A DNA stretch of 64,000 nt from Eledone cirrhosa (lineage: Eukaryota), in the NCBI GenBank assembly GCA_964016885.1, contig OZ024745.1, positions 30,070,001 to 30,134,000 of the forward strand. The letters run 5' to 3'. Shown piece by piece: positions 4,585 through 63,420 of this stretch. Positions within the stretch are counted from its first letter, which is position 1; the number at the start of each line of letters is the position of its first letter. The translations under genes were made by a program, and so were the position numbers. A model generated the notes under the pieces. That model was not told the DNA's origin and made no database searches. It worked only from the letters and a program-made list of their open reading frames with translations.

Positions 4585-4635
4585 CCTCTTCAGGTGTCAG
4601 TTCTACTTTTTTTCTCGAAGCAGCAAGTCGTATTG
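4585..4635 (-). CDS. Micro-exon A1, 51 nt, AIRLAASRKKVELTPEE
   Basis: ttag|CAATAC...GAAGAGG|gtatgt; phase 1-1; the other two frames contain stops. Confidence 0.85.
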
Positions 4636-5629
4636 CTAAAGTTAAACAAAATGGCTTAAATATCATTTGACACAACATATTACATTGACTTTAGCCCCTC
4701 ATTATATTATGTATATTTATAGATCAGTGATTTGCCTTCTTTATGAGGTTGAGTTCCAGTGATGCACTGGGGTCAATTTGATCGACATTCTACTCCCCCA
4801 AAATCTAAATCTGAAACCATTATGTATGGACCCATAACTCCTGATAGAGTCATAGAGACACTAAAGTAAGTTACAGAGTTTCTTGGGCATTTTGTTTAGA
4901 TCTGGTGGAGCCCATCCCCTCTCCAGGTCTGAATAAAAGGGAAGAGTGATAGAGACGAAGTGAGAAAGAGATATTGAGAAAATAAACACTAGTTTTAGAA
5001 AAAAAACTTTTTTTATCAACTGCGAAAGGTTGAATGGCAGAGTAGACCCTGGTAGGATTTGAACTTAGATCATAGAGAATCAGAAGAAATCCTGCAAACT
5101 ATTCTATCCAACATTCTAACAACTCTGCCAATTTGTTGCCTATGTTACGTTTATTATTAAAAATCAAAATCTTTAAATATATTTTTAAATCTGTGCTTCA
5201 CGATTTTTAGTTTTTGCCGATATTCTATGATTTGTGTAGAACTTTACCCCACTTTCGTGTAGTGCTTCCTGGACATCATTTCCTGCCCAACCTACTCTAC
5301 TATCATACCTTACAGTACCAATCAGGAGGATATACAAGTCAAATAGACTTCATCCTCACCATGAGACGAGACAAAAGGTTGTAAATACCAAGTTTTTTCC
5401 TGGGGAGGAATGTACCTCTCAACATAGATTGTCTTGGAAGGGGGTGCAGTGCAGCTGCCAGTAATGTATGTGTAGGGTGTGTGTGAAGTAGTAAAGTTGA
5501 GAATAACTGTTACGGAGTGCTAGTGGAAGGGGTGGGGGGAAGGTCAGGTCACTTTGTAAGTTAAAGTCTCTCTTTCACTATGTATATATATATATACACG
5601 CACAAATATATAAATTATATTAAACATAC

Positions 5630-5680
5630 CTTCTTTATGTGTCAGCACTCTTCTCTTTTCCAAACTAGCAATTAGTTTTT
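5630..5680 (-). CDS. Micro-exon B1, 51 nt, EKLIASLEKRRVLTHKE
   Basis: ttag|...|gtatgt, open phase-1 frame. Confidence 0.85.
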
Positions 5681-6145
5681 CTAAAGTTAAAACAACAAAA
5701 TAGTTTAAATATCATTTGAAACAACATATTACATTGATTTCCGCACTTAATTTTATTATGCACAAAGATCTTTAAATACATATTTAAATCTGTGTTTCTC
5801 AATTTCTATTTCCTGCCAATATTCTATGATTTGTGTATAAGTTTACCCAATTTTGGTGTAGTGCTTCCCAGACATCATTTCCTGCCCACCCTTCCCCACT
5901 ATCATACCTTACAGTACCAACTTGGTGGGTGGGTTTTTTACATCCCCTTCCTCCCTGTGTACTCTTCACCACTATAGTATATGAAATTTTACTGGAAACA
6001 TTATTTAGGGTACAAAAGACTTAGTGAAGGGTTGTGGCTACTACTGACTCAGGTATGGGGGATGACTACATACATTTGTGGGACAAATAAATAACAGATT
6101 ATAAAACATGTAAGAGCTTGACATGCATGTAAATCCCCAGAGACA

Positions 6146-7030
6146 TCTTTGACAACTGCATCATGGAATGTATGAACACTATTGGATTTACCAAGTTCAA
6201 ATCATCCTGAACATTGAACTGCCTTTATCTGTAAAGAGTTCCATTAATATCAATTGGATATTGTTTCTCTCTCTGAAACATGGCTATCTGAGGATGGTCA
6301 GATAGAGTAACCAGAATCAGGATACACATACTACAATGGCTGCTCAGAAAATGAGTGTCATGAATCCGGAGTTGGTTTTGCTCTAAGAACCTCTCTGTTG
6401 CAACATCTGCTGGAACTTCTGTATGGTATCTCCAATCAGATTATGACACATAGGTTGCCACTTCACTTTAACCACATTATGACTTGGGTCAGTGTGTATG
6501 CTCCAACTCTAGTAAGTCCCCAAGAAGGAATAGAGAAATTTTATGTGGATCTGTGATTAGTTTTGAAAAATGTAAAGATGGAAGATAAACCTGTAGTAAT
6601 GGGTGAATTGAATGCTTATATTACATGTGACTTGACTACATGGAGCAGCATAGGTCCTCATGGAATGGAAAAGTGTAATAGCAGTGGATTTCTTCTGCAG
6701 ATGTACCAAGAATTCGATCCTGTCATGGGAAACATGGGAACATCTGGCAACACCGATAATGTGTTAAGAGGATTTTAATGTGATGTGCAAGAGAGAAGAC
6801 TGCATTGGTAAGGACATGTGATGTGTATGGATGATGATGAATCCCAGTGGAGGGAAGCCACAGTAAAGGTAGACCTAGGGAAACTTGGGAAGAGGTGGTG
6901 AGGGCTGATCTCAAATCGCTGAGACTCACAGAGGGGATGAGAAAGTAATACAGCAAGTGGAGAGATGCTATGCTGAAAAAGAACCGTCCAACCTGTGCAA
7001 GCATGGAAAAATGGGCGTGATGGTGATGAT
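6146..7030 (+). mobile_element. Degenerate RTE-type LINE fragments (APE endonuclease piece joined to 3' end); paralogs ~27730-28350 and ~52560-53460
   Basis: ETW, GVGFA, SVYAPT, MG(D/E)LNA, IGPHG remnants; RRLHWYG motif in the paralog; (GAT)n tail. Confidence 0.7.
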
Positions 7031-7051
7031 GATAAATTTTATTAAACTCAC

Positions 7052-7102
7052 CTTCTTCAGTTGGCAGAAAAGTTCCTACACTTGCAGCAGCAAATAGTAT
7101 TT
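7052..7102 (-). CDS. Micro-exon C1, 51 nt, EILFAAASVGTFLPTEE
   Basis: ttag|...|gtgagt (donor variant that is still a consensus 5' splice site). Confidence 0.85.
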
Positions 7103-8614
7103 CTAATTAAAAAAAAATAATAATATCTTATATATCATTTGAAACAACATATTACATTGAGTTTTCCCACTCATTATATTATATTATATATGTTTGTGTG
7201 TGTTTATAGACCTGTACCTCCTGGTAGCGTCATAGGGGTGCTGTAGTGATATATGGCATTTCTTGGGCATTTTGCTTAAGCCTGATGGAACCTATTTCCT
7301 CTCCAGGTCTGAACACAATACATTTCTTCCAGAGTAAAGAAAGAGAGTGATAGAGAGGGTGTAGGAAAGAGACATGGAGGAAGAATCAACTCCAGCACTG
7401 GACTGATACAGTTTTTATTGACCTCGAAAGAATGACTGATAAAGTTGACCTCAGAGGAATTTGATCTCAGAGTACAGAGATCTGGAATAAATACTGCAAA
7501 GCATTCTATTCAATGTTCTAAAATATCTGCCAATTTGATACCTATATATGTATATATATATATATATATTTATACATATGAAAAAGTTATGTATGCATAT
7601 ATATATTTATATATATATATATGATAAAGTTATATCTGTATAAATGCTGTATTATACACCAATATGTATAAATATATACACATATCTGATATGTAGGCAT
7701 GTAAACAAGGTAGAAAGTTTCACTGTAAATTGAAAAAATGAGAAACACAATTGATTTCCAGATCTAATTGGACCCTCATCAAAAGGTATGTTTATCACCC
7801 AACCAACAACAAGAAAACATGCATTTGATGGGTATATATACTCACTTGCTCTTAGTATTATTCAGAAATGGATGTTCTAATTTGCATATAATTAGCATTC
7901 ATGTTGGTAATATATATATTAGGAAGTGTGCTAGCAGCCGAAGTGTACAATAAAGTTATATCTGTATATATACAGTATGTAACTGAGACTGCATCAATAT
8001 AATAACTCCTCTCCCCTCTCTCGAGTTGTTAAATGTTTTGAGGACCTTCTAAGCTGTTTCTAGCTTCATATGTCTTCTCATTAATAGCTATCGGGCACAT
8101 GCACAGGAAATTGGTTTGGTCATTCAAATGTTGTCAATGTTAGCAGTTGCTACTAAAGCTTGGGATTGGTGTGATATGACAGGATCTGTGCACATCTGTA
8201 AGTGTTATTGTTAACCTTGGCAACCTTTGAATGACTGCGCCAATATTGCATGTGGGCACCTGATATGGAATTATTCGTTTGCTTATTTCAGTCAGTCTGA
8301 CACTAGCAATACATGACCACATAAACTCCTCTCCGACGTTCCTTCAGTCTCCCTCTAATGATGGATGAGAAAGCCAAAATATAGGGGTTAATAAGGTAAC
8401 TTCATTGCTGGTTTTCATTTCATTTTACATTTCTTTTTCTTATTTCCTCCCCTCCTCTCAAATCTCAATTCCTCCTACTGCCACCTGATTTTGTTACATG
8501 GAGATTTACCCCTCTGCATTGTAGAGGCTTTCAAAAATGCCCATTTTTACTATTTCACAATGCTTCAAATAAACTTAAACACTCATATATATATATAAAT
8601 TATATTAAACGTAC

Positions 8615-8665
8615 CTTCTTCAGTTGAGAGCATTCCTTCTTTTTTTGCAGCCATAATTAGAATTT
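8615..8665 (-). CDS. Micro-exon D1, 51 nt, EILIMAAKKEGMLSTEE
   Basis: ttag|...|gtacgt, open frame. Confidence 0.85.
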
Positions 8666-8759
8666 CTAATGTTAAAAAAAATTAACATAATGGCTTAAAT
8701 ATCGTTTAAAACCACATATCACATTGAGTCCCCCCCTCATTTTATTATATATATGTATG

Positions 8760-9429: not shown

Positions 9430-9472
<43 letters not shown>

Positions 9473-11635: not shown

Positions 11636-11672
<37 letters not shown>

Positions 11673-11818
11673 AGTCTACATGTTAACACATATCTGAGGA
11701 GCTTCCAATTCCAGAGTCAGGTTCAATCATTAATTGATCATTCCTCGAGCTGATCGACAGTGAAACATATGAGATATATAATTAAATATGTGTATGATGC
11801 AACACTGATTCTTTGTTC

Positions 11819-11878
<60 letters not shown>

Positions 11879-11960
11879 ATATATATATATGTATATATAT
11901 ATATGTATATATATGTACACTTAAACATATATATATTATCTTAAATTATATCAAACATAC

Positions 11961-12008
11961 CTTCTTCTGGTGTTACCACTCCTGTTTTTATAGCAGCAAC
12001 TAGTACAT
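11961..12008 (-). CDS. Micro-exon E1, 48 nt, DVLVAAIKTGVVTPEE
   Basis: acag|...|gtatgt, open frame. Confidence 0.85.
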
Positions 12009-12194
12009 CTGTTGATAAAAAAAATTAACACAATGGCTTACATATCATTTGAAACAGCATATTACATTGATGTTCACCCCCTCATTTTATCGTATATATG
12101 TATGTATGGACACATACGTCCTAGTAGAATCATAGGGGTACTGTAGCGATATATTGTATTTCTTGGGTATTTCTTTTAAACTTGGTAGAGCTCA

Positions 12195-14740: not shown

Positions 14741-14788
14741 CTTTTTTAGTTGCCAGCACTTCTGTTTTTGCAGTAGCAAGTATTATTT
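14741..14788 (-). CDS. Micro-exon F1, 48 nt, EIILATAKTEVLATKK
   Basis: tcag|...|gtatgt, open frame. Confidence 0.85.
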
Positions 14789-15975: not shown

Positions 15976-16026
15976 CTTCTTCCTGTGACCGCACTCCTTT
16001 CTTTTTTGCAGCACTAAGTATTATAT
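15976..16026 (-). CDS. Micro-exon G1, 51 nt, DIILSAAKKKGVRSQEE
   Basis: ttag|...|gtatat (weaker donor), open frame. Confidence 0.8.
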
Positions 16027-18889: not shown

Positions 18890-19463
18890 TTCTTTATAAA
18901 TTTAAGAGAGTTGATTCAGCTATAAGAAACGAATTGGAAAAACACTCTGCCATCATCTTTTCTTTTATTGCAGCCACAGCTATGACTTCTGAAGTTAAAA
19001 AAATTAACACAATGTCTTACAAATCATTTGAAACAACATAATACATTGACATTATATATTTCTACCACATTGTACCTGCTTTTTGAAACTTATCAGTCAT
19101 TTATTACATATCTCACCAAAGGTCATCTATTGAAATAAAACCAGCAGGAGGGGATTTTTACAATGACTTTCTTAAACTCCCTTATCTTGATGTCAATTTC
19201 ACCATTTTCTCTGTGTATGTGTGTGCGCGCGCGTGTATGTGTGTGAATGCTTTAATTCCTGTAAATCTTCATCAACACTCATTAACACCACACCCCAGAC
19301 ACATCCAAATCTCTCTTATATATATAGTTATACATCACAACACAAGATCTCAGTTTGACAATCGCTAAGACTGGTTTGATGAAAATATTGACATTATATT
19401 TGGGGAGCTTCAAGAAATGTACAGGCTACACAAAAAGAAATGGAGAGCAGACAAAATTCTAAA
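18890..19463. repeat. Inverted duplication of ~16667-17098 with an internal templated insertion
   Basis: Reverse-complement match; 18952-19116 replaced by a copy of the exon H1 region. Confidence 0.85.
18952..19116 (-). pseudogene. Truncated duplicate of exon H1 with its acceptor block but no donor
   Basis: Identical to 19889-20053; reads on into unrelated sequence to a TAA. Confidence 0.8.
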
Positions 19464-19877: not shown

Positions 19878-19925
19878 CTTTTTCCTTTATCATCTTTTCT
19901 TTTATTGCAGCCACAGCTATGACTT
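19878..19925 (-). CDS. Micro-exon H1, 48 nt, EVIAVAAIKEKMIKEK
   Basis: tcag|...|gtatgt, open frame. Confidence 0.85.
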
Positions 19926-20719: not shown

Positions 20720-20770
20720 CATTTTCAGGTGTCAGCATTCCTTCTTTTTTCACAGTAGTGATTCGATTTT
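20720..20770 (-). CDS. Micro-exon I1, 51 nt, ENRITTVKKEGMLTPEN
   Basis: ttag|...|gtatgt, open frame. Confidence 0.85.
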
Positions 20771-25214: not shown

Positions 25215-25265
25215 CATCTTCAGGCATCAGTTCTACTTTTTTTCTTGAAGAAAGAAGTTGTATTG
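25215..25265 (-). CDS. Micro-exon A2, 51 nt, AIQLLSSRKKVELMPED
   Basis: ttag|...|gtatgt, open frame. Confidence 0.85.
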
Positions 25266-27216: not shown

Positions 27217-27267
27217 CTTCTTTATATGTCAGCACTCCTTTCCTTTCCAAACCAGCAATTAGTTTTT
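27217..27267 (-). CDS. Micro-exon B2, 51 nt, EKLIAGLERKGVLTYKE
   Basis: ttag|...|gtatgt, open frame. Confidence 0.85.
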
Positions 27268-28369: not shown

Positions 28370-28420
28370 CTTCTTCAGTTAGTGGTAATCTTCCTACTTT
28401 TGCAGCAGCAAATAGTATTT
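28370..28420 (-). CDS. Micro-exon C2, 51 nt, EILFAAAKVGRLPLTEE
   Basis: ttag|...|gtatgt, open frame. Confidence 0.85.
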
Positions 28421-29783: not shown

Positions 29784-29834
29784 CTTCTTCAGTTGACAGC
29801 ATTCCTTCTTTTGTTGCAGCCATAATTAGAATTT
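29784..29834 (-). CDS. Micro-exon D2, 51 nt, EILIMAATKEGMLSTEE
   Basis: ttag|...|gtacgt, open frame. Confidence 0.85.
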
Positions 29835-35100: not shown

Positions 35101-36107
35101 AATACTAGCTCTTTCAATTGCGCAGAGGGTTCTATAGAAATAGTGGACAGCTTCTGTTACCTGGGTGACAAAATCAGCAGTGGGGGAGGGTGCTCTGAAA
35201 GTACAGTAGCCAGAGTCAGAACTGGATGGAAAAGTTCAGAGAGCTTATACCACTATTAGCCGCTAAAGGGTTCTCTCTAAAAATGAAAGGCAGGTTGTAT
35301 GATGCCTGCATACGAACAGCAATGTTGCATGACAGTGAGACCTGGCCATTGTGTGCAGAGGATATACGCAGACTAGAGAGGAACGAAGCTTGCATGCTCC
35401 GCTGGATGTCTAATACTAATATACGTGAACGGCAAAGCATAAACGAACTAAGGAAAAAATTAGAAATAAGAGGGATCAGATGTTGTTTACTCGAGAGAAG
35501 GCTACGTTAGTATGGTCACGTGATGCGCATGAAAGACGACAGCTGTATAACAAAGTGCAAGGCAATAAAGATAGACGGTAGCCACGGAGTAGGCAGACCC
35601 AGAAAAACCTGGGACGAGCTGATAAATTCCGACCTCACACACTTACACCTCTCCAAGACAATGTCACTGGACCGAGACCTTTGGCAGTACTCAGTAATAG
35701 AGAAGACCCGTCTTACCTAAATACAAAGTAAAACCTACTACAGCCAGTAGGCATCTCTAACAAAATACACCCCGTCCCACCCACCCCACCCCATCCACAC
35801 CGCCCCTTTCAATGTAAAGTTACGTTGGTGCCACAACATCCAGGCTGAAACAAATGAGATTGTGTAGGTGTCACGACAAAAAAACACACAGTCCACGCTG
35901 TAATGTGGCCGTGTAGGCAGCACGGGAAAAACCTCCCAGCCCCAAACTGTAAATGTGGTTGGGGTTAGGAAGGGCATCCAGCTGTAGAAAACCCGCCAGA
36001 CAGTCCTACGCGAGCAAGACAATCACTCTTGCCTCAAGTGGGAAACTCCCGTCCAAACCCATGCAAGCATGGAACACGGACGTTAAACGATGATGATGAT
36101 GATGATG
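32150..36107 (+). mobile_element. Near full-length RTE-clade LINE (APE endonuclease, RT, Cys-rich PHD-like finger), disabled by frameshifts and stops
   Basis: ORF pieces 32705-35720: NVGTL, QETRW, GDLNGH, QVDYIL, NYRGI, QFGF, FVDLEKAFD, GVHQG, YADD, CSVC..CPKC..WVHKRC; (GAT)n tail; flanking duplication ATATCTATATTCA(TA)n at 32111 and 36108. Confidence 0.93.
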
Positions 36108-36581: not shown

Positions 36582-36629
36582 CTTCTTCTGGTGTTACCAC
36601 TCCTGTTTTCATAGCAGAAAGTAGTACAT
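36582..36629 (-). CDS. Micro-exon E2, 48 nt, DVLLSAMKTGVVTPEE
   Basis: acag|...|gtatgt, open frame. Confidence 0.85.
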
Positions 36630-38770: not shown

Positions 38771-38818
38771 CTTTTTTAGTTGCCAGCACTTTAGCTTTTG
38801 CAGCAGTTAGTCTTATTT
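38771..38818 (-). CDS. Micro-exon F2, 48 nt, EIRLTAAKAKVLATKK
   Basis: tcag|...|gtatgt, open frame. Confidence 0.85.
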
Positions 38819-40059: not shown

Positions 40060-40110
40060 CGTCTGCATGTGTCCACACTTGTTCTTTTTTTGCAGCAACA
40101 AATATTATAT
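40060..40110 (-). CDS. Micro-exon G2, 51 nt, DIIFVAAKKEQVWTHAD
   Basis: ttag|...|gtatgt, open frame. Confidence 0.85.
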
Positions 40111-42916: not shown

Positions 42917-42964
42917 CTTTTTCTTTTGTCATCTCTTCTTTTATTGCTGTCACAGCTATGACTT
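42917..42964 (-). CDS. Micro-exon H2, 48 nt, EVIAVTAIKEEMTKEK
   Basis: tcag|...|gtatgt, open frame. Confidence 0.85.
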
Positions 42965-43732
42965 CTGATGTTAAAAAAATTAACACAATGTCTTACATAT
43001 CATTTGAAACAACATAACACATTGACATTATATATTTCTACTACATTGTACTTGCTTTTTGAAACTTATCAGTCATTTATTACATATCTCACAGTAAGTA
43101 TATTAACTATACTACTACTATATATATGAGTATATACATTGTATATATGGATTGAAAAAGTAGCAGGAGAAATGAAATATTTGGAACGAATGATCAAAGA
43201 ATGAAGTTTCCTCTTCAGCCACCCATGGGCAATGCAATTTCATGCCAAAAGTGTTATTTCATAATATTGAGCCCAGATTGCATAACAGCTTAGAGCAAGC
43301 CACTGGAAAGATGTATATGAGACAATACAGCATAGAAAGAGAGGACAACATATACATATATCTTCTGTTATGTGGTAGTGCTGGTGCCATGAAAAATGGC
43401 ATCCAGTCAATCATGTAAATGTCAGTACTGGTGCTATGACAAAAAAACACTCAGTTCATTCTATAAGATCAAACAGTCAGAGTCATGATAAAATGATACT
43501 GGTATACATCGTTAGCTAGTTGATAATAGGGAGGGCATCCAGCTTTAAAAACATTGTCAGAATGGAACATATGAGCAAAAGACAGGCATCTGATCTGCCT
43601 AACCAGCCTCAGAAGGTGACAGGAAATCTAGCCCTTGCAAATATAGAAAATAGACATAAAATGATAATGGTAATAATGATAAAGATATATATATATATGT
43701 ATGTATATATATACACATTATATTCAACATAC

Positions 43733-43783
43733 CGTCTTCAAGTGTCAGCATTTCTCCTTTTTTCAAAGTAGCAATTAGGTTTT
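43733..43783 (-). CDS. Micro-exon I2, 51 nt, ENLIATLKKGEMLTLED
   Basis: ttag|...|gtatgt, open frame; a LINE is inserted ~37 nt upstream of the acceptor. Confidence 0.8.
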
Positions 43784-43820
43784 CTAATGTTAAAGAAAAA
43801 AATTAACAGAATGGCTTACA

Positions 43821-44988
43821 ATAATAATAATAATAATAATAATAATGAAATTATTGTGTACAGTGCTCAGGTGCACTACAACTCATCAAAGGTGCATGTA
43901 TAGTACATAGAATAATGTACAAATGTCAGGAAAATAAACAGTGTATGAGTCATGATATAATAACAATAACAATAATGAAATATTGTGCACAGTGCCCAGG
44001 TGCACCACAACCCATCAAAAAAGTGCATGTACAGTACATAGGGCAATGTACAAACATCAGTAAAATGAACAGTGCACACATGTGTGCATGTGTATGGAAG
44101 GGGCACATCAGGTGTAGTTTTGGCGTATTTCGGGAAGCATGAGTGTCTTAAAGGATGCAGTGTCTCGGCAGCTAACAATTGACGCAGGCAGTTTGTTCCA
44201 TGTTTCAGCAACTCTGAGCGTGAAAAAATGTCTGCGAAAGTCATGGGAGCTGTGCTGTTTTCTTATCTTGTAGGCATGTCCACGTGTGTTAGATACATGG
44301 AGATCAAAGAGGCGCTCAGGGTTGCAGTTGGCGAGATGGTTAAAAACTTTGTGGGTATTCACCAAGTCCACTGCCAGACGTCGGAGCTTCAATGAATCCA
44401 TGCCCAGGGAAGCAAGGCGTTCAGAGTATGGTAGGTGTCTGATGGAGGGTATGCGCTTGGTTGCACGTCTCTGAACAGTTTCCAGGAGGTCAATGTTCCG
44501 AGCAAGATAGGGGTTCCAGACTGATGATGCGAATTCCAAGTGTGGTCGCACCATAGCTGTATACAGTTTTAAATAGATGGCTGGAGAGCGGCTAACAAAG
44601 GTCTTGCTGAGTGATGCCAAGACACCCTCGGCCTTCTTGACAATCTTAGAGACATGCTTTGTCCAACGCAAATCGTTGCTGACAGTAATGCCCAGGTCAC
44701 GTTCACAAGAGGACTTTTTGATGTCAGTGTTGTGGAGGGAGTATGTGGACGCTGGATTTTTCCTTCCAAAATGCATGGTGGTACACTTGTCCACAGCCAG
44801 CTTCAGTTGCCAGTCTGTGATCCATTGCTGCATTGTGTCCAGGTCTGATTGTAGGAAAGAGTTGTAAATTTCAGGATCAGTCCTTTTGATTTCAAGGTAC
44901 AGCTTGATGTCATCTGCATATTTTAGTACCGTGGCATTCTGTAAGTTGGCATCTATGTCATTAATATATGCCACAAACAAAAGAGGAC
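43821..44988 (-). mobile_element. 5'-truncated CR1/L2-group LINE, intact ORF end, (TTA)n tail
   Basis: YINDI, KYADDIKLY, RDLGI, VRPHLEFASSVWNP, LETVQRRATK, WNKLP; splits the conserved block upstream of exon I2. Confidence 0.9.
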
Positions 44989-45229
44989 ATTTCATTAGAA
45001 ACAATATATTACATTGACTTTCCCTTCCTCATATTATATATATATATATATATAGTTGTTATATAGTAAGGTGTATTATTGGTTGTGTCATACTGTCCAA
45101 TAAACTTTTGTTAGCAATATTAAGTTCTCCATGCTTTTGTATATCTCCAATTCCATTTATGGGAACAGCTAGATGATGTAAAACGGAGTATTTGTATCAA
45201 AATAAAGATCTGAAGGCATGGTATAAATT

Positions 45230-47523: not shown

Positions 47524-48664
47524 ACATAAAAGACGTAGTGGGATCACAGGTAAACTATCTAAGAATGCAGACTTTATATGTGGCTAATGCTCAGGTGCAA
47601 TAAGTAGCAGGTGTCCACAGGATACTAGCTCCTTCTATTGCCCAGATGGTTCTATAGAAATAGTAGACACTTTTCGTTACTTAAGTGACAAAATCAGCAG
47701 TGGTGGAGGGTGCTCTGAAAGTACGGTAGCTAGAGTCAGAATGGTATGGAAAAAGTTCAGAGAGCTTATACCGCTGTTGGCCACAAAAGGTTTCTCTCTA
47801 AAAATGAAAGGCAGATTGTATGATGCCTGTATACGAACAGCAATGCTACATGGCAGTGAGACATGGGCATTGCGTGCAGAGGACCTACACAGACTGGAAA
47901 GGAACGAAGCATGCATGCTCCGTTGGATGTGTAATAGTAATATACATGAACGGAAAAGCATAAATGAACTAAGTAAGAAATTAGGAATAAGAGGGATCAG
48001 ATGCTGTTTACTCGAGAGAAGACTACGTTGGTATGGTCACGTGATGCGCATGAAAGATGACAGCTACATAAAAAAGTGCAGGGCGATCAAAATTGATGGT
48101 AGTTACGGAGTAGGTAGACCCAGAAAAACCTGGGACGATCTGATAAATTCCGACCTTAGACACTTGCACTTCTCTAAGACAATGTCACTGGACCGAGATC
48201 TTTGGCACTACGCAGTAATACAGAAGACCTGCCTTGCCTATGTACAAAGCGAAACCTACAGTCAGTAGGCACCTCCTATCCAAATATACACCCCAATCCA
48301 CTACCCCTACCCTATCCTTCCACTCCCACCAACACCACCCTCTCTCTGTAAACTTGGTACCACAACATCCAGTCCAAATAAATGAGATAATGAGATCGAG
48401 ATCATGTATGTGTCTCGACAAAAAAAACCAAAAAAATTACTCACAGTCCACTCTGTAATGTGGTCGTGTAGGTAACATGGTAAAATGTTCCCAGTTCCAC
48501 ACTGTAAATGTGGTTGGTATTAGGAAGGGCATCCGGCCGTAGAAAGCCTGCCAGATAGTCCTATATGAGCGAGACACGATCACCAATCCAACCTTGCCTC
48601 AAGTGGCACCACTCCCGTCTAACCGATGCTAGTGTGGAAGATGGACGTTAAACGATGATGATGG
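47524..48664 (+). mobile_element. 5'-truncated RTE LINE, same family as 32150-36107
   Basis: ORF 47741-48268 homologous to 35226-35720; (GAT)n tail. Confidence 0.88.
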
Positions 48665-49572: not shown

Positions 49573-50089
49573 GCTGTCCACAAAATGAGAACAAACTTTT
49601 TATTTATTATATGACAAAATTGACATTCCAATCAAAACCAGTAATATTTGACAAAATTAAATCCATAAAAATATTCATTCTGTCAGATTAAACTGTTAAT
49701 GCTGGTGCCATGATAAATGGCAACCAGTCCACTGGGTGCTGTGACAAAAACTCACCCTCTCCTCACTGTACGGAGTTTGAACTGGTGCCATGACAAAAAA
49801 GCACCTAGTTCGCTCGGTTAGATGATACTGCCAGAGTCATGATAAAATGCTTCTGGTACCTGCATATCTAGTTGATATTAAGGAGAGCATCTGGCTTTAA
49901 AAACAATGCCAGATTGGAATGTATGAGCAAAAAACAGTCATCTGATATTCCTAGCCAGCCTGAGAAGGTGACAACTAACACATTTAAGTATATAAAAATA
50001 GACATATAATGATAATAATAAGGATATATATATATACATATATATATATATACACACACACATAAATATATAAATTATATTAAACATAC

Positions 50090-50140
50090 CATCTTCAGGT
50101 GTCAGTTCGACTTTTTTTCTTGAAGCAGCAAGTTTTATTG
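50090..50140 (-). CDS. Micro-exon A3, 51 nt, AIKLAASRKKVELTPED
   Basis: ttag|...|gtatgt, open frame. Confidence 0.85.
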
Positions 50141-52038
50141 CTAAAGTTAAAACAATAAAATGGCTTAAATATCATTTGACACAATATATTACATTGAATT
50201 TAGCCTTCATTTTATTATGTATATTTATAGATCATTGATTTGCCTTTCATTTTTAGGGGGTCGATAACATAAAGTCCCTGTGATGCACTGAGGTTGATTT
50301 AACCGATGTTCAACTCCTCCAAATTTATTTGTGTCTAAATCAGAAAATATTACGTATGGACCCATAACTCCTGATAGATTCATAGTTACAAAGTTTCTTG
50401 AGCATTTTATTTAGATCTGGTGGAGCCCAACCCCTCTCAAGGTCTGAATAAGTTTAATTTCTTCCAGAGAAAGGGAAGAGTGATAGAGAGGAAGTGAGAA
50501 AGAGATATTGAGAAAATAAACACTAGTATTTATCAACTACGAAAGGATGAATCGCAGAGTAGACCCTGGTAGGATTTGAACTTAGATCATAGAGAATCAG
50601 AAGAAATCCTGCAAACTATTTTATCGAACATTCTAACAACTCTGCCAATTTGTTGCCTATGTTACGCTTATTATTAAAAATCAAAATCTTTGAATATATT
50701 TTTAAATCTGTGTTTCTCAATATTTATTTCCTGCCAATATTCTATGATTTGTGTGGAAGTTTACCCCACTACAGTGAAGTGCTTTCTGGATATCATTTCC
50801 TGTCCACCCTACCCTACTATCATACCTTACAGTACCAACTTGGTGGGTGGGTTTTCTACATCCCCTTCCTCCCTGTGTACTCTCCACCACTATAGTATAT
50901 GAAATTTTACTGGAAACATTATTTAGGGTACAAAAGACTTAGCGAAGGGTTGTGGCTACTACTGACTCAGGTATGGGGGATGACTACATACATTTGTGTG
51001 ACAAATGAACAACAGAATATAAAACATGTAAGAGCTTGACATACATGTAAATCCCCAGAGAATCACCAAACAGTTGGGTGGCCCTCCTACCCTTAAAACC
51101 CAGGAAAAGAAAAGACAGCCCTGCAGCTTTCTTCCCATCAAGCATGAGACCTAAGATGTGCCACATTGAATGTTGGAACAATGAGGTAAGTGTAGAGGGA
51201 TTGTGGAAATGTTAGAGAGGTGAAAAGTAGATGTGTGCTGTGTGCAAGAAGTGGAGGGGAAGTTCAACCAGATTCATTACAGGCAAGGAACACAGGTTCA
51301 AATTCTTCTGGATGAGTGGCAAAAACAGGGTGGGCAAAGCTGGAATACTCCTTGCTTAGAGATGGGTAGACTAGGTAATTGAGGTAGTTTGGGAGAGTGA
51401 TAGAATAATTAAACGTAGACTAGCCCTGGGCAATACTACAGCCACTATACTATCTACAGATGACCTACAAGATGGACATGCTGATGAACAAAATGATCAT
51501 TTCTAGGAGGACCTCCTGCAGATTACCTCAATGACAGAGGACTTTGATCTTCTGATTGTAGTTGGAAACTTCAATTGACATGTTGGGAAACATCAGGATG
51601 GATTTCTTGGCATACACAGAGGCTATGCATATGGCACAAGAAACGAGGAATGAACTAGGCCTCTAGAGTTCTGTAATGTCTTCACTTAATGATCTGTAAC
51701 ACAAAATTCAAGAAACCAACCAATCACCTGATTACCTACCAATCAGGGAGACATACAAATCAAATAGACTTCATTCTCACCAGGAGACAAGACAAGAGGT
51801 TGTAAATACCAAGTCTTTTCCTGGAAAGGAATGTACCTCTCAACATAGATTGTCTTGGAAGGGGGTGCAGTGCAGCTGCCAGTAATGTGTGTAGGGTGTG
51901 TGTGAAGTAGTAAAGTTGAGAATAACTGTTACGGAGTACTAGTGGAAGGGGGAATGTCAGGTCACATTGTAAGTTAAAGTCTCTCTCTTTCTCTCTATGT
52001 ATATATACACACAAATACATAAATTATATTAAACATAC

Positions 52039-52089
52039 CTTCTTTATGTGTCAGCACTTCTTTCTTTTCCAAATCAGCAAATAGTTTTT
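52039..52089 (-). CDS. Micro-exon B3, 51 nt, EKLFADLEKKEVLTHKE
   Basis: ttag|...|gtatgt, open frame. Confidence 0.85.
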
Positions 52090-53481
52090 CTAAAGATAAA
52101 ACAACAACATGGCTTCAATATCATTTTAAACAACATGTTACATTGATTTCCCCACTTAATGTTATTATGCACAAAGATCTTTAAATACATATTTAAACCT
52201 GTGTTTCTCAATTTCTATTTCCTGCCAATATTCTATGATTTGTGTATAAGTTTACCCAATTTTGGTGTAGTGTTTCCCAGACATCATTTCCTGCCCACCC
52301 TTCCCCACTATCATACCTTACAGTACCAACTTGGTGGGTGGGTTTTTTACATCCCCTTCCTCCCTGTGTACTCTCCACCACTATAGTATATGAAATTTTA
52401 CTGGAAACATTATTTAGGGTACAAAAGACTTAGTGAAGGGTTGTGGCTACTACTGACTCAGGTATGGGGGATGACTACATACATTTGTGTGACAAATAAA
52501 CAACAGAATATAAAACATGTAAGAGATTGACATGCATGTAAAATCCCCAGAGACATCTTTGACAACTGTATCATGGAATGTATGAACACTATTGGATTTC
52601 CCAAGCTCAAATCATCCTGAACATTGAACTGCCTTTATCTGTAAAGAGTTCCATTAATATCAATTGGATATTGCTGCTCTCTCTGAAACATGGCTATCTG
52701 AGGATGGTCAGATAGAGTAACCAGAATCAGGATACACATTCTACAATGGTTGCTCAGAAAATGAGCGTTTTGAAGCCGGAGTTGGTTTTGCTCTAAGAAC
52801 CTCTCTGGTGCAACATCTGCTGGAACTTCTGTATGGTATCTCCAATCAGATTATGACACTTAGGTTGCCACTTCACTTTCATCACAGTATCACTTGGGTC
52901 AGTGTGTATGCTCCAACTCTAGTAAGTCCCCAAGAAGAAATAGAGAAATTTTATATGGATCTGTGAATAGTTTTGAAAAATGTAAAGATGGAAGATAAAC
53001 CTGTAGTAATGGGTGATTTGAATGCTTATATTACATGTGACTTGACTAACTACATGGAGCAGCATAGGTCCTCATGGAATGGAAAAGTGTAATAGCAGTG
53101 GATTTCTTCTGCAGATGTACCAAGAATCCCATCCTGCTATGGAAAACATGGGAACATGTGGCAATATTGATAATATGTTAAGAGGAATTTGAAGTTGTGT
53201 GCAAGAGAGAAGACTGCATTGGTATGGACATGGGATGTGTGTGGATGATGATTGCTGGGTGAAGAAGTGCCTGGAAATCCCAGTGGAGGGGAGCCACAGT
53301 AGAGGTAGACATAGGAAGACCTGGACATGGGCCTAGGTGGTGAGGACTGATCCCAAATTGCTGAGACTCACAGAGGTGATGAGAAAGGAATACAGCAAGT
53401 GGAGAGTTGAAAAGAACCGTCCAACCCATGCAAGCATGGAAAAATAGACGTGATGATGATGATTAATTTTATGAAACATAC

Positions 53482-53532
53482 CTTCTTCAGCTGGCGATAA
53501 TCTTCCTACTTTTGCAGCAGCAAATAGTATTT
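53482..53532 (-). CDS. Micro-exon C3, 51 nt, EILFAAAKVGRLSPAEE
   Basis: ttag|...|gtatgt, open frame. Confidence 0.85.
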
Positions 53533-54820
53533 CTAATGAAAAAAAATAATAATGTCTTATATATCATTTGAAACAACATATTACATTGAGTTTCCACCTC
53601 ATTTTATTATATTATTGAGCTCAGAGTACAGAGAACTGGAATGAATACTGCAAAGCATTCTATTCAACATTCTAAAATCTCTGCCAATTTGACACCTATA
53701 TAGGTATGTATGTATATATATATTTATACATATAAAGTTATGTATATAATAATATATATGATAAAATTTTATCTGTATAAATTCTGTATTATACACCAAC
53801 ATGTATAAATATATACACATATCTGATATGTAAGCATGTAAACATGCCAGAAAATACAAATATCCAGATCCAGATCTAATTGGACTCTCATCAAAAGGTG
53901 TGTTTACCATCCAATCAACAAGAAAACATGCATTTGATGGGTGTATATACTCATTTGCTGTTAGTATTATTCAGAAATGGATGTTCTAATTTGCATATAA
54001 TTGCCATTCATGCTAGTAATATATATATTAGGAAGTGTGCTAGCAGCCGAAGTGTACAATAAAGTTATATCTGTATAAATACAGTATGTAACTGAGACTG
54101 CATCAATATAATAACTCCTCCCCCCTCTCATTTTTATTTTTATTTTTATTTGCAGTTTTTTCTTTTATTCTGTCTTTATTCAGATCTCCGAACTCTATTG
54201 TTGATGAAGGGCAAATGCCCAACACGTAGACTGTTTCACTCTCTTTTAAGCATGAAACTAATAAGACATAGTTAATGCATCCTTTTGTTTGTTTTTGTAT
54301 TCTTGATATATATATATAGTTAATTAATCAAATTAATTTCAGATTGAGTTGTTAAGCTGTTTCTAGCTTCATATGTCTTCTCATTAATAGCTATCAAGCA
54401 TGCGCATATGTAATCATTTTTGTTATTCAAAGGTTGTCAATGTTAGCAGTCGCTACTAAAGCTTGGGATTGGTGTGATATGGCAGGGTCTGTGCACATCT
54501 GTAAGTATTATTGTTAACCTTTGCGACCTTTGAATGACTGCGCCAATATTGCATGTGGGCACCTGATATGGAATTATTTGGTTGCTTATTTCAGTCAGTC
54601 TGACACTAGCAATACATGACCACATAAACTCTTCTCCGACGTTCCTTCAGTCTCCCTCTAATGATGGATGAGAAAGCCAAAATATAGGGGCTAATAAGGT
54701 AACTTCATCACTGGTTTTCATTTCATTTTACATTTCTTTTTCTTATTTCCTCCTGCATTGTAGAGGTTTCCCAAAACGACCATTTTTACTATTCCACAAT
54801 GCTTCAAGCAAACTTAAACA

Positions 54821-54892: not shown

Positions 54893-54921
54893 TATATATA
54901 TATAAATTGTTTTAAACATAC

Positions 54922-54972
54922 CTTCTTCAGCTGACAACAGTCCTTCTTTTTTTGCAGCCACAAGTAGGATTC
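54922..54972 (-). CDS. Micro-exon D3, 51 nt, GILLVAAKKEGLLSAEE
   Basis: ttag|...|gtatgt, open frame. Confidence 0.85.
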
Positions 54973-55455
54973 CTAATGTTTAAAAAAATTAACATAATGG
55001 CTTAAATATCATTTGAAACCATATATCACATTGAGTTTTCCCTTCATTTAATTATATACTACCAGAATGGCCCGGCGTTCCTCGGAATTTGCTCTAGGGT
55101 TCTTATAAATTTGATATATATTTACCCTTATCGAGCCTCGTGAAATAAATGAGTTTGTTTATATTTTGTTAATGTGTATGCAAAAATATCTGTACACGAA
55201 TATATAATTATATATATATATATATTTATAACAGTACAGAGAAGTACGGAATACCTCGGCCTACGGCATTTTTTAAGCCTTTTGTTTAAATCTGGCAGAG
55301 ACCAGTTCAGAATGAAATAAAACCAATTTTTTCAAAAGTAAGAAAAGAGAGTGATAGAGAGGAAGTGAGAAAAAGACAGAGAATATTGACAGCAGTACTA
55401 AACTAATAGTAACTATAACTTTTGATTTGTATGGAACATTATCCCCCTTTTATTC

Positions 55456-57258
55456 ACACAGAATTGATTCTATTAAGGATTCTAATGCTGTGCACGTCCA
55501 CTCTGATAAAACTGGCAATCTATATCAAGTGGAGCGCAGTACTTACCATCAACTGCTACATAATGCTGTAACTAAGGATTACCGGAAAACCAATCGGAGC
55601 GTCATTAATGACATCAACGATGCTGGATTTAAAATCACTTGTGAACTCAACATCCAGGACCGGACTGAACCTCTGGACCCTATTTCTCCCCTCTTTACCC
55701 TGAAGGATCACAAACCCAATTTTGCCAACAACCCCTCTATTTGGCTAATTAACCCTACGAAGTCTGATTTAGGTAGACTTAGTAAAAAGATTTTAGATAG
55801 AATTATACCTGAAATTAGAAGCTTGGCCTCTTTTGCACCGTGGAATAATTTTTTCGCGGTGATTGATTGGTTCAACGGCATATGCAACAAGGAACATTTC
55901 CGTTTTACCCAATTCGACATAAATAACTACTACTCCTCCATCACTTTACCAATTCTTCTTAGAGCTATCAATTTCGCTAAAACGCTCACGGTGTTAAGGA
56001 TTTCGAGGTTGATGTCATCCTCCATGCCCGTAAATCGGTGATTAATTTTGACGACTCTATTTGGATAAAAAAATCTAATAGTACCCTATTTGACGTGAGT
56101 ATGGGTGCCAGCGATTTGGTGGAGGTTACAGATCTTATCGGCCTTTTCCTTCTTTTCTCTATCAAGGAAGAATTCCCCAACGTGGGCGGTGGTTTGTACC
56201 ATGATGACGGTCTTTTGACCATGACAAAGTGTGGTCCACACATTTGCGACAGGTTTAGAAAAGAACTTACAGCCTTCTATAAAGGCTTCAACCTCTCCAT
56301 ACAGGTTGAGGCCAACCTCTCGGTCGTTAATTACCTCAACGTTACCCTCAATTTGTCGAATGGCTTGCACTACCCGTAGAGCAAGTCGAATAATACACTT
56401 AATTACATAAGTAAGCATTCTAACCATTCTGCCAACATAACCAAGAACCTGGTAAGAAACGTTTCTTTGAGGCTTTCCAGTCTATCTACAAATGAGCATA
56501 TTTTCACCGACCATTCCACATATTACAATGAAGCTCTTGTTTGGAGTGGATTTATTGATAAGGTAGCATATACTAAGTATGAGCCTAAACCAAGGAAAAA
56601 TAGATCCCGACGCATTATATGGTATAACCCACCATATAATATGGAGGTGGCCATACCATTAGCTAAGATCTTTCTCTCCCTTATTAAGAAGCATTTCCCC
56701 TCAGCACATAAATATAATAACATTTTTAATAGAAATACCATTAAAATATCTTACTCTATGACTCCTAACTTTGCACATAACATCACTGCTTCAAATTTAG
56801 CTAAATTACCTAGCCGTAGGAACACGTGCAACCCCGTAGCTAATACTAACTGTAATTGTAGGAATTGGGTTGACTGCCCTCTATCCGGGAAATGCCCCTC
56901 CAGTAACATTGTCTACAAATGAAAGGTCGAAACACCCACATCTAGTAGGGCCTACATAGGGTTAACCATCAATACATCCAAGCAGCGTCTTTACATGCAC
57001 ACCCATTCTTTTCTTAACCCTTTAAGAAGGAATATGACATCACTGTCAGCTTATATCTAGAGTCTAAAAGACAACCACACCCAATATAGGTTACACTGGG
57101 AGATCCTAGCTAAAGCTAGAGCGTATAACGGAAATAAAAGACCATGCGATCTTTGCGCTGCTGAAGCACTGGAAATACTCTACGCCAATGATCACATCTT
57201 AAACAAAAAATCTGAGGCAATTTCGGCTTGTAAACACAAATTGCATAAAACCTTTTAA
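55456..57258 (+). mobile_element. Penelope-like element, RT + GIY-YIG, disabled
   Basis: LKDHKPNF, LINPTKS, QFDINNYYSSI, MGA, YHDDG, NYLNVT, IIWYNPPY, CNCR..CPLSGKC; empty site in units 1 and 2. Confidence 0.9.
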
Positions 57259-58641: not shown

Positions 58642-58689
58642 CTTCTTCTGGTGTTACCACTCCTGTTTTTATAGCAGCAAGTAGTACAT
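58642..58689 (-). CDS. Micro-exon E3, 48 nt, DVLLAAIKTGVVTPEE
   Basis: tcag|...|gtatgt, open frame. Confidence 0.85.
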
Positions 58690-61691: not shown

Positions 61692-61780
61692 ATATATATA
61701 TATATATATATTATACATATATATATACATATACATATATATACACACACACACAGATATATAAATGATATTAAACATAC

Positions 61781-61825
61781 CTTTTCTAGTTTCCAGCACT
61801 TTAGTTTTTGCAGCAGCAAGTATTT
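61781..61825 (-). CDS. Micro-exon F3, 45 nt, EILAAAKTKVLETRK
   Basis: tcag|...|gtatgt; one codon shorter than F1/F2, frame kept. Confidence 0.85.
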
Positions 61826-62257
61826 CTGATGTTAGAAAAATTAACAAAATGGCTTAAATATCATTTGAAACAGCATATTGACTTTTCTCCTTTTATTATA
61901 TTATATATATATATGGACCCCAATCCCATCACTCCTCCAGATCTGAATAAAATCTATTTCCTCCAGTGTTATGAAAGAGATTGATAAAGAGGAAGTGAGG
62001 AAGAGATATGGAGGAAAAATCAACCCCAGTTCTAGATGAATATTTTTTTTATCAACCTCGAAAGAACAAATGGCAAAGTTGAACTTGGTGGGATTTGAAT
62101 TCAGAGCACAGAGAACCAAAACAAATCTTGCAAAGCAGTCTATCTGCCTTCTAACAACTCTGCCAATTTACTGCATATATTGTTTATATATATATTAAAA
62201 AAAAAGAAAGAATCTTTAAATACACTTTTCCATATCTATTTTTACCTATTATCTATG

Positions 62258-62295
<38 letters not shown>

Positions 62296-62301
<6 letters not shown>

Positions 62302-62450
62302 GGAGCTTCTACAGGACTAGTACTGTTTCATTCAGATGAAATCTTCAGGAAGCTGGGTGTCATATTAAGTTCTGAACTTAATATGACACCCAGCTTCCTG
62401 AAGATTTCATCTGAATGAAACAGTACTAGTCCTGTAGAAGCTCCTTCTAT
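62296..62450. repeat. Perfect palindrome (77-bp arms, 1-nt centre at 62373), probably an inverted Penelope pseudo-LTR
   Basis: Exact reverse-complement arms containing CTGAAGA-N12-GAAAC. Confidence 0.85.
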
Positions 62451-62528
62451 AAAATAAAAATTTTTTACTCTGCCATGTATTGAGTACCTTACTTACTGTG
62501 GTTATCCCCGACTCAACCCGGGACCTAC

Positions 62529-62578
<50 letters not shown>

Positions 62579-63369
62579 ACTAGAGATTGGTTAACATATA
62601 AATAAACATGAATAATCACAGGAGATAATTTTTACAAGTGTGTAACCACACATAGCTAGGTAGGTAACTAAATAAAGTTGACCAGAACTTCAAAAATAGA
62701 TACCTTATAATATGATTAATCTTTCCTGTATATATTCCATTAAAGAAATATATTTCACCAATTAATCAGATGGTAAACCAAAGAAGTGGAGACTTGGATT
62801 TTCAACAAGGAAGATTATTCATGTTTATTTATATGTTAATCAATCTCTAGTTATTATAAAATGCTCGGACCTACTCGTTAGAATCTTAGAGCTTATTTTG
62901 TGGGTGATATGGCGCATGTCTTTCTGGCATGACACCCATAATTTTGATTTAGATTAAATTTGTTTGATTTATCTTAATTTTGGATATATATATATATATA
63001 TAAAAATATACACACACACACTCTGTAAGGTCATAGTGCTGGTCCCATAAAAAAAAGCGCGCTATCCAATCTGTTACGAGATAAAACTGGTAACATGATG
63101 AAAAACACCCAGCTGATTCTGTAAGATGGTACTGCCAGAGTCATTATAAAATGGTCCCTGTGCAAGCCATGAATTGGATGACATTAGGAAGGGCATTCAG
63201 CCATAGAAACCATGCTAGAATGGAATGTATGAGCAGAAGACAGTCATCTGACCTTCCTACCCAGCCACAGGATGTGACAACATGTCTGACACATACAACA
63301 TCGAAAATAGACATAATATGCTAATCGAATAATAATGAGGATATATATATATATATGTATTAAACATAC

Positions 63370-63420
63370 CATTTTCCTGCGTCCACACTCCTTCCATTTT
63401 TGCAGCACTAAGTATTATAT
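63370..63420 (-). CDS. Micro-exon G3, 51 nt, DIILSAAKMEGVWTQEN
   Basis: ttag|...|gtatgt, open frame. Confidence 0.85.

Follow-up and report, generated by a model that had tools for sequence, protein, structure and literature searches.

Frame and splice sites are kept, but amino acids change, in a 475-kb array of symmetric mini-exons of Eledone cirrhosa

The window considered here, a stretch of 64,000 nucleotides from Eledone cirrhosa, carries a run of very short exons on its minus strand, and this raises the question of whether they encode a long repeat protein, form a cassette system from which exons are selected, or are not translated at all. A sequence-only reading had placed 25 such segments between positions 4585 and 63420 and left open the choice between the first two. 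All 25 were found where they had been placed, and all are intact. Their lengths (51 nt, n = 17; 48 nt, n = 7; 45 nt, n = 1) sum to 416 codons, which bears out the figure of at least 416 aa given for these phase-1 exons. The final base is G in 25/25, and every exon lies between an acceptor AG (TAG or CAG) and a donor GT (gtatgt 21, gtacgt 2, gtatat 1, gtgagt 1). The phase-1 frame is free of stops, as had been claimed, in all 24 parsed exons, against 22 and 18 exons with a stop in the other two frames, and the 25th (43733-43783) is likewise open. Profile E-values of full copies, 1e-23 to 1e-45, exclude a chance origin. The label 'micro-exon' is less apt: as that term is defined in the available part of its source (10.1101/868786), it covers exons of <=39 nt, so that 'mini-exon' is the more exact term for 45-51 nt.

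Block structure of the array

The first reading missed that the exons belong to nine classes in a fixed order, A-I, the window reading ABCDEFGHI ABCDEFGHI ABCDEFG. It also missed that the repeated unit extends into the introns, by ~70 nt upstream and ~20 nt downstream of the exon, and overlooked both a reverse transcriptase (RT)-type insertion at about 43820-45039, which splits the upstream flank of one class H exon, and a class I pseudo-exon. The two halves of the split flank lie ~1.15 kb apart, and the gap includes an RT-like ORF (44108-45028). The features of the window, in the order in which the minus strand is read, are as follows.

4585-63420, minus: the window's share (25 exons) of the 167-exon array, from a profile search
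63370-63420, minus: exon class A, 51 nt
61781-61825, minus: exon class B, 45 nt
58642-58689, minus: exon class C, 48 nt
54922-54972, minus: exon class D, 51 nt
53482-53532, minus: exon class E, 51 nt
52039-52089, minus: exon class F, 51 nt
50090-50140, minus: exon class G, 51 nt
44977-45039, minus: 5' half of the conserved flank upstream of the next exon, displaced
43733-43783, minus: exon class H, 51 nt, conserved upstream flank split by insertion
42917-42964, minus: exon class I, 48 nt
40060-40110, minus: exon class A, 51 nt
38771-38818, minus: exon class B, 48 nt
36582-36629, minus: exon class C, 48 nt
29784-29834, minus: exon class D, 51 nt
28370-28420, minus: exon class E, 51 nt
27217-27267, minus: exon class F, 51 nt
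25215-25265, minus: exon class G, 51 nt
20720-20770, minus: exon class H, 51 nt
19878-19925, minus: exon class I, 48 nt
18947-19054, minus: pseudo-exon, an extra class I unit with flank and acceptor kept, exon cut short and no donor
15976-16026, minus: exon class A, 51 nt
14741-14788, minus: exon class B, 48 nt
11961-12008, minus: exon class C, 48 nt
8615-8665, minus: exon class D, 51 nt
7052-7102, minus: exon class E, 51 nt
5630-5680, minus: exon class F, 51 nt
4585-4635, minus: exon class G, 51 nt

When the neighbouring DNA is scanned, further copies appear. The array spans 475 kb (contig C5 30,043,598-30,518,794) and gives 173 profile matches, all on the minus strand, 167 of them intact exons. 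Its order is GCDFFFGHI + (ABCDEFGHI)x17 + ABCDE, that is, an irregular nine, 17 full nine-exon super-repeats of 149-150 aa each and a final five; an assembly gap (200 N at C5 30,497,929) lies within the irregular first repeat. Joined, the 167 exons make 8,310 nt and 2,769 aa with 0 stops. No slot in the 17 full super-repeats is empty or dead, and the two extra partial copies in the array are both broken. A block measures ~15 kb with its introns, some reaching 30 kb after insertions, and introns within super-repeats are at least 693 nt long. The super-repeats are 4-12% diverged in a star-like pattern, their homologous introns being 80-96% identical where alignable; among the nine classes, ~70 nt of intron upstream of the exon can be aligned and deeper intron cannot. 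A unit of exon plus flank (~175 nt) diversified into nine types, and the whole block was duplicated in tandem at least 17 times.

A transposon or satellite would be expected at many loci, in both orientations and with random decay. Instead, exact matches to the flank motif across the genome all fall at the array on one strand (63/63), as do the scored DNA matches (40/40, the best 40 of 144 candidates), and together with the single strand of the 173 profile matches and the lack of decay this rules out such an element. The array unit is not a transposon, being found at one locus only.

Selection on frame and splice sites

What is conserved in the array was measured on its 158 regular exons (17 x nine + five, the irregular first nine being left out). 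They contain no true stop, where the mutation spectrum of the exons themselves predicts 11.4; no internal frameshift, where intron indel rates predict about 32; and no broken AG/GT, where 27 would follow from the 8.6% rate at which such dinucleotides are lost in homologous deep introns. Selection purges stops, frameshifts and splice-site losses in every exon, but it leaves the amino-acid sequence free to change. Divergence is higher in exons than in introns (0.104 vs 0.071, the intron rate being BLAST-based and possibly biased low), and this is so in 8/9 classes; replacement divergence, at 0.126, exceeds both the synonymous value of 0.086 and that of introns, and pN/pS among array exons is 1.47. 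Synonymous variants number 48/251 against 24.5% expected (p = 0.048), and replacements gather at module positions 9-15 (101 vs 81.6 expected). Within the block expansion no significant constraint on amino-acid chemistry was detected, either as core-to-polar changes (7 vs 8.9 expected) or as new prolines in the helical part of the module (3 vs 5.6 expected).

Maintenance of frame and splice sites while amino acids change freely suggests a long molecular spacer. The raised pN/pS and the exons outpacing introns are also compatible with a system that generates diversity, and the lack of any detected amino-acid constraint is odd for a folded repeat and counts against the reading favoured below, as do the fixed A-I order, for which block duplication would suffice, and the intact alternatives that true cassette clusters such as those of Dscam also keep.

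The host gene and its predicted product

The exons flanking the array are also in phase 1, and on both sides of it the gene is colinear, on the same strand, with Octopus bimaculoides A0A0L8H5Y7. The array is not a stand-alone gene but an insert within a conserved cephalopod gene. This host gene runs along the minus strand at least from C5 30,741,574 to about 30,019,240, at least 720 kb, and its product of at least about 4,700 aa, of which the array contributes about 2,770 aa, has a helical HEAT-like region and K/E-rich exons. The same strand carries an intronless UGP2 69 kb farther upstream. The first coding exon was sought in the genome and not found. Among 1.84 billion representatives, the downstream 408-aa exon has only 2 matches, both orthologues of the host gene's product: A0A0L8H5Y7 (XP_014775115, 'CCDC173-like') and Argonauta hians GAB1604762; the 'CCDC173-like' name is without support from any Pfam match. 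In the slot of the array, A0A0L8H5Y7 has ~385 aa of other K/E-rich low-complexity sequence and no detectable copy of the module, which points either to an expansion confined to one lineage or to an incomplete model.

The earlier reading had recognized no protein family, and no family name emerged from our searches either. A seven-helix model of the HEAT-like region (pLDDT 69) gives HEAT/TOG-type matches that are generic (best Z 6.2, none at E <= 0.001), and its HEAT_2 Pfam match (E = 0.094) is below the cut-off. Protein P0004 matches one designed helical protein in the PDB (E 0.25), and the ESM Atlas offers leads only (FSIP2 fragment 0.78; SDA1/HEAT 0.89). Word-based searches, which are limited for distant relatives, returned nothing for the downstream exon among proteins of 729-2,080 aa or for P0004 residues 30-310 among proteins of 924-2,942 aa and 2,943-5,000 aa. 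The accessions XP_014775115, XP_014775116, A0A0L8H5Y7 and GAB1604762 were found in no paper; titles or abstract openings on octopus microexons do not name the gene, no title on cephalopod tandem exons, repeat proteins or testis was relevant, and the supplementary material of a study on O. maya testis (six files) contains no match to it. No signal peptide was seen in the orthologue, and in the sequence outside the missing first exon hydrophobic runs are too short for a signal or transmembrane segment (maximum 19-aa hydropathy 0.89 in P0004, 1.35 in the array).

The module itself comprises 15-17 aa, one per exon, rich in E, K, A, L, V and I with 2.5% proline, and shows hydropathy periods of 8.3 and 16.6 aa. 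Its profile has 0 matches among PDB sequences. By eye it resembles the LTxEE-type repeats of P0004 and the 20-aa repeat of the giant exon, but homology to both was rejected, with no domain at >= 0 bits.

The choice offered by the sequence-only reading, repeat protein or cassette system, leans towards a long repeat protein: block duplication is strictly by nine exons, no slot is empty or dead, the extra copies are broken and neither docking-selector pairing nor conserved RNA structure was found. On this evidence the gene probably encodes a giant intracellular scaffold or ruler protein, mostly constitutively spliced and enlarged by nebulin-like block duplication. A short HEAT-like helical region would come first, then a K/E-rich exon of ~1,035 aa that contains a separate tandem repeat of 20 aa, the modules (about 2,770 aa), the K/E-rich exon of 408 aa and finally a C-terminus that is short and conserved. 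Most or all array exons would be spliced consecutively, each join forming a short amphipathic helix (T-x-E-E before the junction, E-I-L-x-A-A-x-K-K after it) closed by G-x-L, so that the chain would consist of 16.6-aa units with a super-period of 149-150 aa. Its role may be that of a long spacer, ruler or scaffold in which length and register outweigh sequence. The lack of a signal peptide, the giant K/E-rich make-up and the fast divergence hint at a germ-line (sperm) or cytoskeletal setting.

Regulated or stochastic in-frame skipping, in the manner of titin PEVK or schistosome MEGs, would instead yield variable subsets of exons or whole super-repeats with positive selection on the copies, a possibility that deserves to be kept in view even if it is not the one we expect. 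All exons are symmetric in phase 1 and no ordered pair of them creates a stop when joined; the excess of replacements, its clustering and the shortage of synonymous variants fit such a scheme, and the alignable upstream intron could be a splicing-regulatory element. Dispensable exons, however, should have suffered nearly free splice-site losses, about 27 of them where none is seen in 158, donors are uniformly strong (gtatgt in 146/169 parsed array exons), the class H exon at 43733-43783 keeps frame and sites although its upstream element is interrupted ~35 nt from the acceptor, and the intron rate may be biased low. The fuller version, in which 167 positively selected mini-exons serve as an isoform-diversifying device with variable subsets or nine-exon blocks and tunable length and surface, we regard as rather unlikely. 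Were it true, one gene would give a large protein family, with sperm competition and cell recognition as conceivable settings, through a MEG- or PEVK-like system several times the size of Dscam's biggest cluster and built on a periodic super-repeat. Three sequencing runs from one sample over 50060-54800 of the window are DNA-like, covering 30/30 bins with depth above 10^4 on repeats, and show no exon-to-exon joint among the 15 joints listed (189 further); they may come from the source sample and so not be independent.

It is very unlikely that one of 167 exons is chosen per transcript by docking-selector pairing, as in Dscam1. In favour of this reading, many paralogous exons of equal length each follow a conserved intronic element. 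The best duplex partners in the downstream intron nevertheless differ among the nine classes, and no common docking site was found when one copy of each class was scanned against the introns on either side of the array. In a first pass 2/6 class-by-intron tests beat 6/6 shuffles, both in the 3' intron; class D failed on re-test, its energy being reached by 8/20 shuffles and lying within the range of 10 unrelated regions, while the class A result dates from that first pass with 6 shuffles only. RNAalifold finds no pairs, symmetric exons preclude exclusion by nonsense-mediated decay, the length of the introns within super-repeats precludes steric exclusion, and a 475-kb cluster would change only 17 of about 2,000 residues. 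Most improbable is that the array is untranslated, whether as an intronic repeat without coding function, as what is left of a transposon or as a region that died recently. This would explain the undetectable amino-acid constraint and the absence of the module from the O. bimaculoides model, but stops, frameshifts and splice dinucleotide losses are each far below neutral expectation, the flank-motif and scored DNA matches lie at one locus, and no Rfam match occurs in the array.

This coding region of ~2,800 aa would be overlooked by annotation pipelines and short-read aligners, because its 50-nt exons lie in kilobase-long, repeat-rich introns and are absent from the related public model. The array offers a natural experiment in 17 parallel replicates, in which frame and splice sites are kept while amino acids are free or driven, and selection on length and register can be told apart from selection on sequence, a distinction that is difficult to draw in titin or nebulin. 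Constitutive splicing of 167 mini-exons in a row would test how far exon definition can go in a mollusc; skipping would make them a new large system of isoform diversity in cephalopods.

Comparison with known systems

WDR87 and WDR97 are testis-enriched vertebrate proteins with N-terminal WD40 propellers, a HEAT/ARM-like block and a very long K/E-rich region, and we take the resemblance of the host gene to them as a lead, not an assignment. The likeness, a helical HEAT/ARM-like block and then a long K/E-rich region, is not specific to WDR87/97. WD40 repeats were found neither as PF00400 matches near the locus among the best 150 of 553 candidates nor in 39 and 99 selected ORFs, searches that short or divergent exons would escape, and three word-based searches, of limited sensitivity to distant relatives, retrieved no WDR87/97 protein. 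WDR87 works in sperm tail assembly, according to the available part of PMC11462348.

The accessible text of PMC5825161 gives schistosome MEG exons as 6-36 bp, making up about 80% of the coding region of secreted or membrane proteins. The array shares with these its short symmetric exons and fast amino-acid change, but differs in exon size (45-51 nt) and in its share (~59%) of a protein of at least 4,700 aa, in whose orthologue no signal peptide was seen, and by that description it lies outside the MEG range of exon size and coding share. Drosophila Dscam1, as far as the available source describes it, likewise has many paralogous exons of equal length and conserved upstream intron elements, whereas here no docking or selector signal was found, the order is block-periodic and the exons on either side do not supply the rest of a folded domain.

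Titin PEVK and the array both string many small symmetric exons together into a spacer, charged and of low complexity, within a giant protein, and in-frame skipping is possible in both. The array differs in being proline-poor, helical-looking and strictly ordered in nine classes, and in having no Ig or FN3 domains. In the available parts of the sources, TTN exons are symmetric, as are 97% of those of NEB (PMC9222585), and in NEB a 32-kb region comprising eight exons is present in triplicate (PMC7369045). Nebulin, so described, has these traits in common with the locus: a giant gene of mostly symmetric exons, multi-exon blocks duplicated with their introns, super-repeats and a plausible length-regulating role. 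The nebulin/titin-type trait of a long symmetric-exon run built from tandem multi-exon blocks is present as 17 full blocks with homologous introns. No nebulin, Ig or FN3 Pfam match was found in P0004, P0002 or the flanking exons, single modules being too short for Pfam. Nor was any sequence relation found between the two systems, the present one being built of 15-17-aa modules, one per 45-51-nt exon, in a nine-exon block repeated about 18 times; and where nebulin repeats keep an actin-binding motif, the amino acids here are unconstrained or diversifying.

The exon array and its surroundings

The repeated unit measures ~175 nt; besides the exon itself it includes ~70 nt of intron on the upstream side and ~20 nt downstream. 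A profile made from one such unit recovered 27 copies on the minus strand of the window. Of these, 25 are complete and the other two are partial:

window 18947-19054, minus strand: extra class I copy, truncated (profile match)
window 44977-45039, minus strand: one half of a flank, which an RT-type insertion has displaced (profile match)

Profile search and parsing of the window bore out the 25 minus-strand exons proposed by the sequence-only reading, together with their lengths (seventeen of 51 nt, seven of 48 nt and one of 45 nt; 416 codons in total), terminal G, AG/GT ends and donor variants. The phase-1 frame is likewise stop-free, with stops in 0/24 parsed exons versus 22 and 18 in the other two frames. 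The introns of the window hold LINE/reverse-transcriptase-type ORF fragments, recognized by eye from translations (443-2247, 32696-35259, 44108-45028, 47588-48268, 55358-56922 and 63596-64000).

The window covers positions 30,070,001-30,134,000 of contig C5 in a genome of 3.0 Gb. When run over 564 kb of DNA around it (cut-off E <= 0.01), the profile gave 173 matches, 173/173 on the minus strand. After four unparsed matches (three flank fragments and one weak match) and two broken partial duplicates were left out, 167 intact exons remained between C5 30,518,794 and 30,043,598. Unique exons flank the array at C5 30,536,227 and 30,034,762. For two array exons the call was extended from 39 to 48 nt, using a CAG further upstream. 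Exon lengths are 51 nt (111), 48 nt (43) and 45 nt (13), and the last base is G in 163 and A in four. Sorted into nine classes, A to I, the exons follow the order GCDFFFGHI, (ABCDEFGHI)x17, ABCDE; a 200-N gap at C5 30,497,929 lies between exons 3 and 4 of the irregular first group. Concatenated by script, they measure 8,310 nt and read through 2,769 aa without a stop.

A dispersed transposon, whose other genomic copies might have carried the same motifs, is ruled out, because all 63 exact genome-wide matches of a 23-nt flank motif fall at the array locus and on the array strand (63/63; reversed control, 0). Rfam returned no match for the array element and no consensus RNA structure was found for it.

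Each of the 17 full blocks of nine exons encodes 149 or 150 aa and spans 15-30 kb. Divergence between blocks is 4-12%, on average about 9-10%; their tree is star-like, and their orthologous introns are 80-96% identical where alignable. The array is judged to be no assembly artefact, since the blocks are too diverged from one another. It arose by duplication of single exons to give nine types, followed by copying of the nine-exon block many times in a short period, after which insertions lengthened individual introns. Two flanks are near-invariant between copies, namely the class I upstream flank (e.g. window 42965-43040; p-distance 0.009, other upstream flanks ~0.1) and the class G downstream flank (e.g. 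window 50066-50089; p-distance 0.011); splicing-regulatory elements or gene conversion are possible explanations.

Selection on the exons and their probable use

Selection statistics cover the 158 regular exons and exclude the irregular nine; for codon statistics, each class is represented by its majority-length members alone. The 253 distinct variants from the class consensus include no true stops versus 11.4 expected, the two single-base variants flagged as stops being double-hit codons that actually read TAC and TCA. Internal gap events are absent from the exon alignments; upstream flanks contain 30 (25 not a multiple of three) and downstream flanks three. Deep introns accumulate 0.125 frameshifting indels per substitution (four alignments, 53/70 rows kept), a rate predicting ~32 frameshifts for the exons, to an order of magnitude only, with indel events binned roughly. 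Similarly, AG or GT dinucleotides are lost in 8.6% of cells of homologous deep introns, whereas the exons have lost 0/316 splice dinucleotides against 27 predicted, and no class slot is empty. On three independent tests, the array is real and codes for protein.

The amino-acid sequence, by contrast, is not conserved. The pN/pS ratio is 1.47 (0.126 and 0.086), and exon divergence exceeds that of homologous introns in 8/9 classes (0.104 vs 0.071; local alignment may have biased the intron value downwards). Synonymous variants number 48/251, a marginal deficit (p = 0.048), and tests for hydrophobic-core or anti-proline constraint on the modules were not significant. Selection acts on the frame, length and inclusion of the exons, with the amino-acid sequence free or diversifying; each 16-17-aa module seems to be needed although its sequence is not.

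Across the 111 modules of 51 nt, the profile by position reads E-I-L-L/I-A-A-A-K-K-K/E-G-V/M-L-T-x-E-E. All of them have a hydrophobic residue at position 4, positions 8 and 16 carry a charge in 93%, 50/52 prolines fall at positions 13-15, and joined modules show hydropathy periods of 8.3 and 16.6 aa. Under helix-capping rules, T-x-E-E opens a helix and G-x-L closes one; a helix would therefore span each splice junction, with two adjacent exons forming one structural unit. Consecutive splicing would then line up the short helices in one long chain whose super-period is 150 aa.

The sequence-only reading had left open a long repeat protein or a cassette system. The former is favoured, the main argument being zero splice-site loss, and the exons are probably spliced consecutively into a helical chain serving as spacer or scaffold. 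In-frame skipping of array exons would be compatible with the fact that no exon pair creates a junction stop and with the apparent diversification of the copies, but we regard it as the less likely reading. Dscam-like choice of one exon among many is unlikely: two of six first-pass duplex tests beat six shuffles, yet on re-testing the class D duplex energy was reached by 8/20 shuffles, and the best duplex sites are not the same between classes.

The host gene

Downstream of the array lie further small phase-1 exons and a K/E-rich exon of 408 aa, which matched two proteins among 1.84 billion representatives: Octopus bimaculoides XP_014775115 (E 1e-52, 44%), whose cluster includes A0A0L8H5Y7 (P0004; 1,681 aa), and Argonauta hians GAB1604762. 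P0004 is colinear with the host gene on the same strand, and a Pfam scan placed UGP2 upstream:

C5 30,741,575-30,717,903, minus strand: colinear match, P0004 aa 37-306
C5 30,707,177-30,704,525, minus strand: colinear match, P0004 aa 614-734
C5 30,028,159-30,027,026, minus strand: colinear match, P0004 aa 1119-1543
near C5 30,019,900-30,019,240, minus strand: colinear match, P0004 C-terminus
69 kb upstream of the host gene, same strand: UGP2 (Pfam scan)

As the matches are colinear on both sides, the array is assigned to the slot between P0004 aa 734 and 1119, where P0004 carries ~385 aa of different low-complexity sequence (by eye) and no copy of the module is detectable in that protein. The coding region of the array is hidden from the related public gene model. 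A single exon of ~1,035 codons, at about C5 30,714,120-30,711,012 (pieces L076-L077 of the surrounding DNA), contains 31 copies, all in frame, of a repeat of 60 bp (20 aa) and is a second, intra-exonic repeat expansion in the host gene. Altogether this gene encodes ~4,700 aa and spans at least 720 kb, combining the array with the exons found (~1,940 aa; the first exon is missing from this set and some boundaries are approximate). A single-sequence model of its conserved N-terminal part has seven helices (pLDDT 69), and its fold matches were of generic HEAT/TOG type only. No signal or transmembrane stretch was found in P0004 or the array, and no family name was obtained.

Several further features were recorded around the gene. 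The UGP2 ORF (UDP-glucose pyrophosphorylase; L086:6528-8093, minus; 522 aa; PF01704, E 8e-190) is intronless, possibly a retrocopy or a gene without introns. Host-gene introns hold, upstream of the array, a satellite of ~88 kb built from a 60-bp unit with 95% matches and single-base indels (C5 30,542,250-30,630,700; L049-L068), as well as three tandem copies of a 6.3-kb unit at ~98% identity (C5 30,660,153-30,679,219; L071-L073). Just past the downstream end of the array, two small exons are separated by an inserted LTR-retrotransposon-like element (L004:90-2461 and L005:8889-10000, minus) with gag, protease, RT and integrase-like ORFs and, by eye, direct terminal repeats. A ~21-kb tandem duplication (C5 29,987,168-30,026,870; L005-L008, L051; 99.4% and 98.6% identity), either recent or an uncollapsed haplotype, supplies a second copy of the 3' terminal exons. 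The 3' side of the host gene is bounded by plus-strand exons that, by eye, resemble a RhoGAP gene (C5 29,975-29,982 kb) and adenylate-kinase-type genes (C5 29,895-29,912 kb; together L051-L052 and L058-L060). A 409-aa ORF at L093:580-1806 (plus) combines a hydrophobic leader with a cysteine motif and a long stretch resembling a coiled coil; it has no Pfam match.

Comparison with known systems

The HEAT-plus-K/E layout of the host gene presumably resembles WDR87/WDR97; no WD40 was detected upstream. A sperm role for the protein is a guess from its size, composition and rate. Titin possesses a spacer made from small exons, and the host gene would work alike. PMC11462348 gives WDR87 a role in the sperm tail. 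Block-duplicated symmetric exons are described for nebulin in PMC7369045 and PMC9222585, and the host gene works in a similar way. The host gene is a member of neither nebulin nor titin, and the array falls outside the MEG size definition of PMC5825161. Searches of the openly accessible literature found nothing on this locus and no paper naming the orthologues' accessions. What is new here is the scale, with 167 exons spread over 475 kb, a nine-exon periodicity that is strictly kept, and the way in which every exon is retained while its amino acids change freely.
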